A stretch of DNA of 64,000 bases from an uncultured Aminicenantes bacterium (GCA_965195285.1 CBDAFS010000062.1:1-64000); one strand, 5' to 3'. Positions 7,161-18,407 are shown, counted from the first letter of the stretch. The notes: a model not told the origin generated them from the letters alone. Program-made: numbers and translations.

Positions 7161-9341
7161 TCAAATTCCGGTTTCCATCTCTTTCAGCAGATGGGATGCG
7201 TTACCGAATTTTTCAATGAACCAGAGAATGTAACGGATATCAACCCCGATGGAACGGCTGTATTTTTCATTCCAGGCATAATCATTGATGGTGGCTTCAA
7301 AAGTACGATCAAAATTCAGGCCGACGAGTTCCCCTCTGGCATTTAAAACCGGACTGCCCGAATTCCCCCCGGTGGTATCGGCATTGTACAGCATGGCAAC
7401 CGGGACATCATTCAACCCGGGATGCTTGAACAGCCCGAAATCCCGCTGGCGGAACAGTTCCAGAAGCCGGGGCGGTGCCCGGAAGGGGAAAAAACCGGTA
7501 TTCTTTTCTACAATCCCCTTCAGGGTGGTAAGCGGCCGGTAGTATACCGCATCCCGGGGGTAATACCCGCGGATGTGTCCAAAGGTCAGACGCAGGGTAC
7601 TGTTGGCATCAGGGATAAAGTTTCGGCCCAGAAATTGTTTTTTTATATCACTGAGCTGAGCGGACAAATCATCCATAATTCCTTTTCGCTGCTTGGAGAT
7701 CTCATCCAGTTTCCGGTACTGGAGGTACAGGGATATGGCCAGGTCCATGAAAGGATCATTGATTTTTTTCAGTTCCAGACTGTTCAGGGCAAACAATTTT
7801 TCCACTACCTCGGGCCGGGCCAGCCGGGTTTCGGCATAGGATTTCTTCAAAAAATCATCAATAGACTGTTCATAACCGGAGAGGTCCGCTTCCACTGTTT
7901 TCCCATCCTTTATACCCAGCAGTCTGTCAACCCCGTTTATCCGCTGGCCTTCCAATTTCAAGGTCCTCATTAAAAATTCCTTGAATATAACCGCATCCGT
8001 TGGCTGGTGGAAATCTTTCAATCTCAACATCAACCGTTTCCGGGTCCGCTCGAATTTCCGGTCCATATAGGCCGGTTTTCTCTCGCTATCGTCCTTCTGA
8101 CGCTCGATGGAGGCCTCATACAGGGTGTGAGCGGTATAGAGCAAGTAGGAACTGCCCTTTAGAAAACCCATGAGCAGCTCAAAATCAGCGGTCAGGGTTT
8201 TCTGTTGATAAAAGTTTTTGATCCTTTCCAGCAAGTTGCCATAACGATTCTGACGATCGGGATGGGAAAGGATGAATTTCTGCAATCGGTATTCCTGGGC
8301 GGATTTCTCCTTGATCAGCCCGATTCTTTCCAGGCCAATCAATTTTCCCCGGTAATTTTTCAATCGATTGGAAAGATTCTTGATCCGGGAGACCAATTTC
8401 AGTTCAACCGAACGCTCCCGGTAGCCCGGGGCTTCCAGTGCCGATATCATCCAGGCACTTGCCTGCACCACATAGGGCATGCGAATCTCCTTTTCAAAGG
8501 CAATGAAATATGAAGTCCGATGCCGGTAGGTACGCCCGGGGTATCCTAACAGAAAGACCAGATCTTCCTCATTCACTCCCCGGGGATTTATCTTTAAATA
8601 CCTTCTGGGATGAAAGGGGATATTTTCCGGAGAATAATCGGCCGGTTTTCCATCCGGACCCACATAGGCCCTGAGAAAAGAAAAATCACCGGTATGGCGG
8701 GGCCACATCCAGTTATCCTCCTCACCACCGAATTCTCCGATATCATGGGGCGGGGCATAGACCAGCCGGATGTCCTTCAGGTAGGACGAAATGAAGAGCA
8801 CATAGGTCTGACCCGGGAACATTTCCGCCACTTTCGCCCGTTTTCCGGGATGCTTTTTCTCGGCCTCGATGACCAGTTGTTTTGTCTTTTTCTCAATGGC
8901 CTTGGTCCTCTGGGCAAAAGTCATTTTATTATTGATGACACTGAGTACCTCTGCAGAAACATCCCGGTAGGTTTCGGTAATTCGCACCGTATACGCCTTG
9001 GCTTCCTTTTCCTGGCTGCGGTCACCGGCTGAAAAACCGTTTTTCAGATAATCCTTCTCTTTGCAGCTGGCCGACTGGATGGCCCGGAACGAACAATGGT
9101 GATTGGTCAATATCAATCCGTCAGCGGAAACAAAGGACCCGGTACAAAAGCTTAAATCGGCAATGGCATCGATGATGCTGATTCCCTGCGGATTGTAGAT
9201 ATCCGTGGGATCGATCATGAATCCCATTGATTTTAAATCCAGCTTGTGGATTTCACTCAGGGGGTACATGCCCTCCTCGGAAAACAGCTGGCTACCGATT
9301 ATTAAGATGAATACCAGACTCAGTATGATTTTAAATTTCAT
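7161..9341 (-). CDS. S46 family dipeptidyl peptidase (DPP11-like)
   Basis: Signal peptide, EGMYP, TNHHC, NWMWPRHTGDFS, TTGGNSGSPV, GLNFDR. Confidence 0.92.
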   Translation of the reverse strand: MKFKIILSLVFILIIGSQLFSEEGMYPLSEIHKLDLKSMGFMIDPTDIYNPQGISIIDAIADLSFCTGSFVSADGLILTNHHCSFRAIQSASCKEKDYLKNGFSAGDRSQEKEAKAYTVRITETYRDVSAEVLSVINNKMTFAQRTKAIEKKTKQLVIEAEKKHPGKRAKVAEMFPGQTYVLFISSYLKDIRLVYAPPHDIGEFGGEEDNWMWPRHTGDFSFLRAYVGPDGKPADYSPENIPFHPRRYLKINPRGVNEEDLVFLLGYPGRTYRHRTSYFIAFEKEIRMPYVVQASAWMISALEAPGYRERSVELKLVSRIKNLSNRLKNYRGKLIGLERIGLIKEKSAQEYRLQKFILSHPDRQNRYGNLLERIKNFYQQKTLTADFELLMGFLKGSSYLLYTAHTLYEASIERQKDDSERKPAYMDRKFERTRKRLMLRLKDFHQPTDAVIFKEFLMRTLKLEGQRINGVDRLLGIKDGKTVEADLSGYEQSIDDFLKKSYAETRLARPEVVEKLFALNSLELKKINDPFMDLAISLYLQYRKLDEISKQRKGIMDDLSAQLSDIKKQFLGRNFIPDANSTLRLTFGHIRGYYPRDAVYYRPLTTLKGIVEKNTGFFPFRAPPRLLELFRQRDFGLFKHPGLNDVPVAMLYNADTTGGNSGSPVLNARGELVGLNFDRTFEATINDYAWNEKYSRSIGVDIRYILWFIEKFGNASHLLKEMETGI

Positions 9342-9525
9342 ATGTATTTCTCCTGAAAATTTAAATTAACTATGTATAATATATAAAAACCCAACCTTTT
9401 TCAAATCCAGATAATTCATTTTCCCCTATTAAATGCAAGGAGATGTTGTTCGGTCACCATTACAGGTAAAGGAAAAGAAAAAAACGTGATGCGTAAGGAC
9501 GTAAGACGTGAAGATTGATAGTAAT

Positions 9526-9700
9526 CTGGTCATGAGAGCTTTCTGGAAATCGTCATTAAAGCTCTCTCATTCTTGTCAGGTAAACTCTCTTTCACTTGTC
9601 AGTAAAGTAGTTCTTAAAAGCTCTTAATGACGTGAGCGTAGTGAACAAATGACGCATGCTCTGCATGCACCTGACGTGACCAACGGTCACAAATGACCAG
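9526..9700. repeat. Phased GTCA x4 / TGAC x4 repeat element with 8-bp terminal inverted repeat
   Basis: GTCA at 9529/9552/9575/9598, TGAC at 9628/9650/9672/9694; ends CTGGTCAT...ATGACCAG. Confidence 0.75.
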
Positions 9701-9716
9701 TATGTTCCAATCTCTG

Positions 9717-9868
9717 TTTCAAATTTCGTGCTTAGGATTTCGGATTTGGGATTTGATTTTTTTCTTCTGGCTCCTGTCTCCTGAATTTTTTTTGATCCCG
9801 GGTTTTGAACATTGGTATTTTGGGTCATTCGAGATTGTTTCGGATTTCGTGCTTCGTGCTTCGAATTT
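9717..9868. repeat. Degenerate 7-bp tandem repeat arrays
   Basis: TTTCAAA-TTTCGTG-CTTAGGA-TTTCGGA-TTTGGGA; CTTCTGG-CTCCTGT-CTCCTGA; TTTCGGA-TTTCGTG-CTTCGTG-CTTCGAA. Confidence 0.8.
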
Positions 9869-9885
9869 AATAGTATATCATCCTA

Positions 9886-9914
9886 TTGACTCAAAGCAGT
9901 CATTACGGTAAAAT
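9886..9914 (+). promoter_or_regulatory. sigma70-type promoter of tRNA-His
   Basis: TTGACT-17 bp-TAAAAT, 14 nt upstream of the tRNA. Confidence 0.7.
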
Positions 9915-9928
9915 AGCAATCACAGTAC

Positions 9929-10003
9929 GGTGAGTGTAGCTCAACGGTAGAGTATCGGTCTGTGGAACCGAATGTTGCGGGTTCAAATCCCGTCACTCAC
10001 CCA
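9929..10003 (+). tRNA. tRNA-His (GTG)
   Basis: G-1, acceptor GTGAGTG/CACTCAC, anticodon arm TCGGT-CTGTGGA-ACCGA, T arm GCGGG-TTCAAAT-CCCGT, discriminator C. Confidence 0.96.
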
Positions 10004-10194
10004 TTTTGATTCACCATCCAAATAATCCCCCTATCCAACCCAGATAATCTAAATTTATTTTGATTATTTAATTTCCAAGTTTCAAAGCACCGTCCCCGTT
10101 TTTTTCTCTATTATAAAAAGGGCATTTTAGGAAATAAGGGTTACAAAATAGTTGCAAAAATTTGATATAAAAATGTTTAAACGTTTTAGTGGCT

Positions 10195-18277: not shown

Positions 18278-18407
18278 CGGTCTGTGGAACCGAATGTTGC
18301 GGGTTCAAATCCCGTCACTCACCCATTTTGATCCACCATCCAAATAATCTAAATTTATTTTGAATATTTAATTTCCAAGTTTCAAAGCACCGTCCCTGTT
18401 TTTTTCT
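18278..18407 (+). repeat. attR-like copy of tRNA-His 3' half plus downstream flank
   Basis: 55 bp identical to 9956-10010, then near-identical with a 22-bp indel. Confidence 0.92.

Follow-up and report, generated by a model that had tools for sequence, protein, structure and literature searches.

Phased mirrored heptamer arrays with covarying hairpins form a proposed family of non-coding mosaic repeats within one Aminicenantes family

The window analyzed here is a stretch of 64,000 nucleotides from an uncultured Aminicenantes bacterium, and positions 9526-9700 within it are best read as one copy of a non-coding mosaic repeat family, which belongs to a single family of Aminicenantes and is of the general kind of REP/BIME, BOX and NIME. 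More specifically, we give about even chances to a reading in which the repeat is a gene-less foldback mosaic of REP/BIME- or BOX-like character, probably recognized as folded single strands by a putative factor. If this reading is right, the arrays add a new and well-delimited family of mosaic repeats to a phylum for which metagenomes are the only source. Their design is unusually legible: the heptamer is invariant, the period of 22/23 bp is strict, the hairpins covary, and one class of hairpins works on a single strand only. These features in combination point to a putative factor that would read the short word beside a folded single strand and that oligonucleotide binding assays could fish out. 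On the practical side, short-read assemblies break at the arrays (contigs end at 9698), and the arrays mark variable spacers and could serve as strain markers.

The spacer that contains the array is 590 bp long and separates a peptidase S46 gene (minus strand, 7161-9341) from the tRNA-His gene, which agrees with the placement of the array upstream of tRNA-His in the initial annotation. The same annotation stated that no ORF explains the element, and this is borne out by our analysis: no ORF accounts for the array, and unit lengths of 22 and 23 bp are not divisible by three. The features of the spacer and of the neighboring gene are as follows.

9461..9525, plus strand: upstream flank module 'A', purine-rich CGTAAG-like short-period repeats with an A-run at the end; multiple partial copies in the genome
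9526..9533, plus strand: left terminal inverted repeat CTGGTCAT, a terminus shared by arrays C42c, C30a, C30b and C15b
9525-9547, 9548-9570, 9571-9593 and 9594-9624, plus strand: left block, four units with a GTCA core, a 23-bp period and a CT-rich linker; the fourth unit includes the junction ..AGCTCT
9625-9646, 9647-9668 and 9669-9690, plus strand: right block, three 22-bp units, each the inverse core plus a 15-nt hairpin with a 6-bp stem and a 3-nt loop
9691..9700, plus strand: terminal unit AAATGACCAG, which contains the right terminal inverted repeat ATGACCAG
9715..9787, plus strand: downstream flank module 'C', T/C-rich short-period repeats, multicopy
9802..9870, plus strand: downstream module 'D', outside the heptamer array proper, with about a dozen genomic copies
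9886..9914, plus strand: promoter-like site of tRNA-His, TTGACT-17-TAAAAT, downstream of every repeat module
9930..10002, plus strand: tRNA-His (GTG), the neighbor gene and the only Rfam match above threshold

The four GTCA words (starts at 9529, 9552, 9575 and 9598) and the four TGAC words (starts at 9628, 9650, 9672 and 9694) can be read directly from the window sequence at the exact 23-bp and 22-bp periods that had been claimed for them; one additional, off-phase TGAC lies at 9677, within a hairpin. The right-block cores are, in order, TAATGAC, AAATGAC and ACCTGAC. Both perfect hairpins of the initial annotation, GCATGC-TCT-GCATGC at 9655-9669 and GTGACC-AAC-GGTCAC at 9677-9691, are present, but its count of two has to be raised, as the first right-hand insert (9633-9647) is a third hairpin, with a tandem G.A plus one G.T, of the tandem-G.A type found in the family. 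The specific complementarity reported between left and right sites was recovered in all three pairs: CTGGTCAT/ATGACCAG, CGTCATTAA/TTAATGACG, and GTCAGGT (9575-9581) with ACCTGAC (9669-9675). The first of these pairs is an 8-bp terminal inverted repeat, complementary at 8/8 positions, which closes the window array and recurs in other copies.

The surroundings of the array are themselves repetitive. The flank modules (9461-9515 and 9715-9787) are multicopy families in their own right, and at C30:31840-31935 they stand back to back without an array, as a small foldback. Module 'D' has copies on contigs C24, C31, C41, C42, C45, C46 and C50, and its summed depth exceeds that of the rest of the stretch, in DNA contigs as well as in RNA-library contigs. 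In metagenome run X2, a contig of depth 27 connects 9715 with 9835 on opposite strands, which implies that some genome in the sample has the downstream modules in an inverted arrangement. Further along the window, at 18278-18332 and thus 8.3 kb downstream, a segment of 55 nt repeats the 3' part of tRNA-His (9956-10010) exactly and is followed by sequence resembling 10010-10090 (to about 18400). This segment has the appearance of the distal attachment-site repeat of an island that inserted in tRNA-His; the interval contains a protein kinase gene, unnamed ORFs, a weak HNH match and a tricorn-type protease in two ORFs, and no integrase was found there by Pfam.

The phasing of the array is far beyond chance. 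Chains of at least four GTCA/TGAC words spaced at 21-24 bp occur 22 times in the genome, while block shuffles gave none in 19 of 20 replicates and one in the remaining replicate (1/20), so that shuffled controls do not reproduce the phasing. Control spacings of 17-20, 25-28, 29-32 and 33-36 bp gave zero such chains genome-wide, and seven other tetramer sets gave 0-3 chains each.

We searched the source genome (G000; 3.28 Mb in 62 contigs, 42% G+C) for further copies and found 13 arrays, the window copy included. They share a common plan, which begins with the CTGGTCAT end, continues with 0-12 units of (C)TTGTCATTA plus a CT-rich linker up to the junction ..AGCTCT, and then runs through 0-10 units of (W)WATGAC plus 15 nt to the AAATGACCAG end. 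The left units are built on the core (T)TGTCATTA and the right units on the inverse core TAATGAC plus a hairpin, with a spacing of 23 bp in 35 of 47 left intervals and of 22 bp in 35 of 45 right intervals. There are departures from this plan within both blocks: some right-block units carry no hairpin and consist of the inverted 10-mer TAATGACAAG followed by a CT-rich linker, and some left units have a weaker second word, TCAT or TCAA, about 10-13 bp past the core. Most arrays have on one side a purine-rich module, made of 6-8-nt repeats and terminated by an A-run, and on the other a pyrimidine-rich module; in an alignment of the upstream flanks of 11 arrays, purine-rich modules related to 'A' precede most of them. 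More generally, spacers in this genome are rich in tandem repeats of 6-8 nt, which also flank arrays, including (AGGTAA)n with up to 15 copies, (ATCTTCT)n with 12 copies, (TTTCGGA)n and (TTCTATC)n (for example C15:131350-131442, C42:26801-26884 and C42:20326-20356); these resemble the heptamer repeats of cyanobacteria and Beggiatoaceae.

The arrays tend to cluster, with three within 10 kb on C42 and three within 3 kb on C15, and either block can stand alone (left only at C15:131.5 kb, right only at 2.8 kb and 10.3 kb on C42). Contig C16 ends in 61 nt that are identical to the beginning of the reverse complement of C31, which indicates two full arrays in tandem at that locus, and one array carries a 67-bp internal duplication. 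An ordered series of units (..AAGAACTATCATA / CAGTTCTCTG.. / GTGAAC-nnn-GTGAAC / GCATGC..) is common to C42c, C30a, C30b, C15a, C15c and C45, with units missing or added. Since ordered unit types are common to several loci and the differences are by whole units, it follows that arrays were copied as wholes and that units were later lost or gained. Paralogous arrays are 70-88% identical, which indicates that there was no recent burst. Left and right unit counts do not track each other (4/4, 6/4, 2/4, 12/4, 4/0, 0/4 and so on), and a one-to-one pairing of left with right units was rejected. Rare core variants have a complementary partner in their own array in two cases, GTCAGGT/ACCTGAC in the window and GTCAGGA/TCCTGAC in C16, which are few cases, other variants having no such partner. 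Local GC skew, taken as an indicator of replication-strand bias, is negative on the element strand at nine arrays and positive at four, and the two flanks of one locus disagree.

The array is subject to turnover between related genomes. The orthologous spacer between the peptidase and tRNA-His genes in G001, a member of the same genus with about 70% flank identity, is about 100 bp long and has the tRNA promoter and zero repeat modules; at this level of flank identity the exact borders of the empty site cannot be drawn. G003 (89% identity) retains the upstream module, the last hairpin and ATGACCAG, and it lacks 168 bp that were lost between two copies of GACGTGA, at window positions 9505-9511 and 9673-9679. 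The promoter-like site of tRNA-His is kept in G003, and a similar site is found in the repeat-free spacer of G001. In G002 the orthologue of another array spacer has purine-rich and pyrimidine-rich modules around a different center. As to whether unit number or order varies, a check suggested in the initial annotation, unit number differs between arrays, and the array is lost or shortened in related genomes; no strain-level change in unit number was seen in the contigs of two metagenomes, where contigs drop rare variants. Contigs of both runs, X1 and X2, carry window positions 8600-9698 including the array, with 0 and 1 difference, and they break at 9698/9699, as expected for a repeat boundary.

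The hairpin inserts are tied to the arrays. ATGAC followed by a perfect hairpin with two 6-nt arms and a 3-nt loop (6/3/6) occurs at 21 of 6,586 ATGAC sites in the genome, 16 of the 21 being inside arrays; five control pentamers gave 0-5 such hairpins each. For an analysis of covariation we used units starting with TGACG in chains of at least three, taken from the window, eight loci of the same genome and 33 loci of relatives; the 248 units in chains reduced to 53 distinct TGACG units, of which three with 4-nt loops were dropped and 50 were aligned. In these 50 units, 84% of the cells of the 6-pair stem are paired versus 64% in shuffles, and 83 cells show double-sided changes versus 30 in shuffles, values that 0 of 500 shuffles reach in either case. 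When stem partners were slid by 1-3 columns, pairing dropped to 18-36%. The stems covary, and the local hairpins are strongly supported. Perfect stems are present in 24 of the 50 units, and there are at least 10 different stems.

A distinct class of hairpins has G.A/A.G at stem positions 3-4, in 15 of the 50 units, and the pairs flanking the tandem G.A covary as well (ACGAGC/GCGAGT, ATGAGC/GCGAAT, ACGAAC/GTGAGT and GTGAGC/GCGAAC). The overall tally is 32 G.A versus 2 C.T. The opposite strand would read a tandem pyrimidine mismatch, and the tandem-G.A class can therefore be stable on the TAATGAC strand only. A GAA loop closed by C-G is found in 12 of the 50 units. The pyrimidine-GA-purine context and GAA loops closed by C-G favor stable DNA mini-hairpins. 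They suit RNA equally and do not separate DNA from RNA. As regards wobble pairs, the tally is 17 G.T versus 7 A.C, with 8 of the G.T at a stem position that is fixed by the selection for TGACG; the remainder of 9 versus 7 is uninformative on strand or RNA nature, and a broader unit set gave 11 versus 14. The GTTCAC/GTGAAC hairpin type recurs in G000, G011, G023 and G085, and the GTGAGC/GCGAAC type in G000 and G024. Hairpin types common to several genera indicate that the inserts are a small, old repertoire and not fresh acquisitions. The suggestion of an array that accretes hairpin units is consequently sustained as far as unit number varies, but the inserts come from this small repertoire common to arrays and genera, and no newly acquired insert was seen.

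Folding of the window copy as RNA (9520-9705) is more stable than that of shuffles on both strands, with z-scores of -4.8 (plus strand) and -5.3 (minus strand), and folding as DNA gave z = -5.1. In the composite C30a the outer modules pair and the cores nest within them (z = -3.6). In the window copy, pairing of the outer modules is unsupported by a wider fold of 9440-9880, which has z = -1.2 on the plus strand and -2.4 on the minus strand.

These observations bear directly on an alternative that we regard as unlikely, namely that the array is transcribed as a structured RNA, in which the right block would provide modules of a linear heptamer plus a hairpin that are bound or cut by an RNA-binding protein (as a sponge, processing or stabilizing element), with pairing of the left block as an alternative structure. 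The covariation of the hairpins and the tandem-G.A class fit RNA as well as DNA, the RNA fold of the plus strand speaks for this alternative, and several arrays lie 47-125 nt from the start or stop of a gene. In addition, in the one RNA-library run examined, a 254-nt contig matches 9618-9699 with 7 differences; it therefore derives from another copy, the library may contain DNA, and contigs show neither strand nor ends. In RNA-library run X20 there is no contig over 8753-9568, which spans the peptidase gene and the left block, a gap in contigs that shows nothing by itself. However, the array is not preceded by a promoter-like site, nor is it followed on the plus strand by a terminator-like site, and a search of Rfam 15 over 9300-10100 at an E of 10 or less returned no match beyond tRNA-His and two chance snoRNA matches. 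The three informative same-strand spacers carry the element once in sense (C42c) and twice in antisense (C42a and C42b), G.U is not in excess over A.C, and the locus is dispensable in G001 and G003. The initial annotation had considered a structured RNA with alternative pairings; the local hairpins stand, by covariation, but the uncorrelated unit numbers of the two blocks, either of which can be missing, argue against an obligatory left-right ladder.

The family appears to be restricted to relatives of the source organism, which are uncultured bacteria of sediments. A three-core pattern matches 20 of 72 genomes of its own taxonomic family, compared with 3 matches for a reversed control pattern, and genomes with at least three matches fall in genera g1 (its own), g2, g8, g9 and g18. 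Match counts are highest in G000 (48), followed by 34 in G084 and 18 in G082, with 13 in G011; in G084, four array sites lie within 14 kb on contig C5. Among 129 genomes from other families of the class, 17 have one or two matches, and those listed are identical tandem units or coding-like strings. A scan of public genomes for three copies of the 8-mer core TGTCATTA at 21-23 bp found at least 119 loci in many phyla, most of which are plain tandem repeats of identical units, and the only clear relatives among them are Candidatus Aminicenantes loci. In viral contigs the real core has 15 loci, the reversed core 14 and the scrambled core 15; counts equal to those of control cores indicate background. 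Given these plain tandem repeats and background counts, we claim no cross-phylum meaning for the core. Plasmid and phage collections gave no match to the array, and a literature search found no description of this Aminicenantes repeat, an absence that is not proof.

An analogous design was observed between unrelated genes in Treponema MAGs, where loci L086, L107, L126 and L132 (about 1360-1800) have 3-4 TGTCATTAYCGG units at 22-23 bp, then two central hairpins and then inverted TGAC units, with at least 10 loci in one MAG. No common family was found among the 26 of 56 ORFs flanking these Treponema loci that were scanned, overlapping shadow ORFs having been dropped.

In order to identify genes associated with the arrays, we examined the neighbors of the other copies. 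They are unrelated: no Pfam family recurs among 24 flanking ORFs in the source genome, which include a peptidase, a kinase, an ABC transporter, TPR proteins, PFOR, ParB, HsdR and a nitroreductase, or among 51 flanking ORFs in relatives. Two of the 13 arrays are upstream of, and co-oriented with, a tRNA gene, an association that is suggestive only. The second such case is the array at C15:129739-129975, which lies about 120 nt upstream of, and co-oriented with, tRNA-Lys CTT (C15:129545-129619); beyond this tRNA there is a DUF4041/T5orf172 gene, typical of mobile islands.

A Y1/RAYT-type transposase was considered as a mobilizer and rejected. One array has a Y1 transposase gene with a DnaA-C domain at a distance of 134 bp; among the 17 Y1 genes in the genome it is the one that adjoins an array, and no array lies within 1.5 kb of the other Y1 loci (0/16). 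Of the 72 genomes of the family, 58 have Y1 homologues. In genus g15 such homologues are present in 22 of 28 genomes and the array pattern in only 1 of 28, and in the array-rich G011 (13 matches, as above) the Y1 homologue is only a 101-aa fragment. The 17 Y1 (IS200-like) genes, mostly of about 300-330 aa (for example C30:32107-33075), are a large paralogous family for a 3.3-Mb genome, and the Y1 gene examined there carries a DnaA C-terminal helix-turn-helix domain. An autonomous element with the same ends was not found in the source genome, and a metagenome scan for the terminal pattern yielded 120 loci, 119 of which were read, mostly chance or coding matches and with no long array-bounded element; 22 of the 119 have a chain of at least three, and the three of these that were read out are coding repeats or chance. 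Aligned flanks of 11 arrays show no direct repeat at the borders that could be a target-site duplication, and the flanks, being composed of repeat modules, do not allow insertion boundaries to be drawn.

It is also conceivable, if rather improbable in our estimate, that the arrays are phased binding sites on duplex DNA in the manner of iterons, partition centromeres or operator arrays, with a heptamer box at every two helical turns and the two blocks opposed, so as to form a nucleoprotein complex that organizes DNA or tunes flanking promoters. Across genera, conservation is confined to the 7-mer core, which is present in both orientations; the tight periods of the two blocks and the weaker second word of some left units point the same way. 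Left-only arrays lie directly 5' of genes in G024 and G084, and about half of the arrays in the source genome either separate divergent genes or adjoin the end of a contig. This alternative leaves unexplained the compensatory changes of the right-spacer hairpins and the one-strand G.A class, and it has to accommodate arrays that are dispensable in close relatives. Neither is there a recurrent adjoining regulator, rep or par gene. A link to replication origins or partition was rejected, with parB beside 1 of 13 arrays in the source genome and no G084 array near dnaA or either parB copy; iterons and partition centromeres were likewise set aside, as helical phasing is present but a consistent rep or par neighbor is not.

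To return to the preferred reading of a foldback mosaic that is recognized as folded single strands, the active form would be the folded strand itself, preferably of DNA during replication or repair. Single-stranded DNA is preferred because the orientation relative to genes is inconsistent (one sense, two antisense) and no promoter or terminator frames the array. The right-hand hairpins would form on the TAATGAC strand, and the complementary heptamers of both blocks could zip the element into a branched foldback, which the terminal repeat would close. Selection for single-strand hairpins beside an invariant heptamer implies a factor that reads a word next to a fold. The heptamer, unchanged across genera, may thus be read by a putative trans-acting, structure-specific factor, which might occasionally place copies of whole arrays in new spacers. 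Unit number would change by slippage or by unequal recombination between phased cores, and microhomology deletion between them may also reshape the array, while effects on neighboring genes would be secondary, if there are any. Against this reading count the divergence of the paralogues, at the 70-88% identity given above, the lack of a mobilizing enzyme, the lack of a target-site duplication, the constant unit number in the metagenome contigs and the wobble pairs without a strand signal. That unit types persist in several genera, although the genomes are small, hints at a function. A protein that binds duplex DNA would likewise fit the conservation of the cores in both orientations, the left blocks that stand alone and the period of 22-23 bp.

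A more speculative proposal, to which we attach little credence, combines the two modes of recognition in one undescribed, lineage-private nucleoprotein system: the left blocks would be duplex boxes that load a protein, and the right blocks, with the heptamer and the single-strand hairpins including the tandem-G.A class, would be its substrate. The outcome might be structure-specific recombination or copy-out without a recognizable transposase, or a chromosome-organizing site.

The ends of Tn7-, Mu- and Tn402-type elements carry several transposase sites of about 22 bp in inverted orientation. A derivation of the arrays from such ends, as MITEs that lost their cargo and whose end sites came to abut, is highly improbable: direct repeats in each half, inverted halves, terminal units unlike internal ones and outermost bases TG...CA all fit, but there is no target duplication of 5 bp or any other length, the sole rve-domain gene of the genome, the one candidate for an rve/DDE partner, has no adjoining arrays, no long element bounded by both blocks emerged from the genome or the metagenome scan, and such ends have neither blocks of as many as 12 units nor hairpin spacers.

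Among known systems, a CRISPR array was rejected since the constant part is only 7-9 nt (versus at least 23) and the 15-nt inserts are palindromic, from a repertoire common to arrays and genera. MITEs and foldback elements resemble the arrays in the terminal inverted repeat, the lack of coding capacity, the foldback of the whole element and, apparently, the presence or absence between relatives, but the arrays have phased subrepeats inside and lack a target-site duplication and an autonomous partner. Of the three options offered by the initial annotation, a MITE-like element is accordingly the closest: the family is multicopy and without genes, its terminal inverted repeat measures 8 bp, and the element is missing at the orthologous site in G001, whereas the flanks are repeat modules and the two hallmarks just named were not found.

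Cyanobacterial STRR are intergenic direct repeats of heptamers. Further intergenic heptamer repeats, of the TAACTGA type, have a patchy spread in Beggiatoaceae, Cyanobacteria and Bacteroidetes and are without an assigned function (PMC4679880). The likeness lies in short phased intergenic words, patchy phylogeny and unrelated downstream genes, and the difference in a word that is spaced by 15-16 variable bases in the arrays and not contiguous, in the many hairpins and in the two inverted blocks.

The arrays differ in dimensions from NIME, in which, as in the arrays, a short conserved core alternates with variable inserts in intergenic arrays of changing length. NIME of Neisseria consist of dRS3 repeats separating RS units, with a core of 20 bp and inserts of 50-150 bp, versus a core of 7-9 bp and inserts of 13-15 bp here, where no phage or integrase link was seen at the arrays. 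BOX elements of Streptococcus pneumoniae have the composition boxA-(boxB)n-boxC, with pairable end modules and units of about 45 bp. Their units are thus longer than the 22-23 bp of the arrays, which also have two mirrored blocks of different unit types; the likeness is one of architecture, with conserved termini around tandem units (0-12 left, 0-10 right) in a gene-less, intergenic element that has a stable predicted fold.

REP/BIME of enterobacteria and pseudomonads are extragenic, multicopy sequences that pair a short word with an imperfect hairpin and form mosaics with linker motifs, a variable unit number and strand-specific structure. The word of the arrays is the 7-mer TAATGAC, while that of REP is a tetranucleotide, and array units run head-to-tail within each block, while REP/BIME units alternate. 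The stems of the arrays differ between units, there is a second block with a complementary word and without hairpins, no RAYT-type gene is linked, and there are only about 13 arrays per genome. What the arrays share with REP/BIME is the joining of a fixed word to a hairpin, TAATGAC plus 6/3/6, found only in intergenic arrays that are mosaic and of variable unit number.
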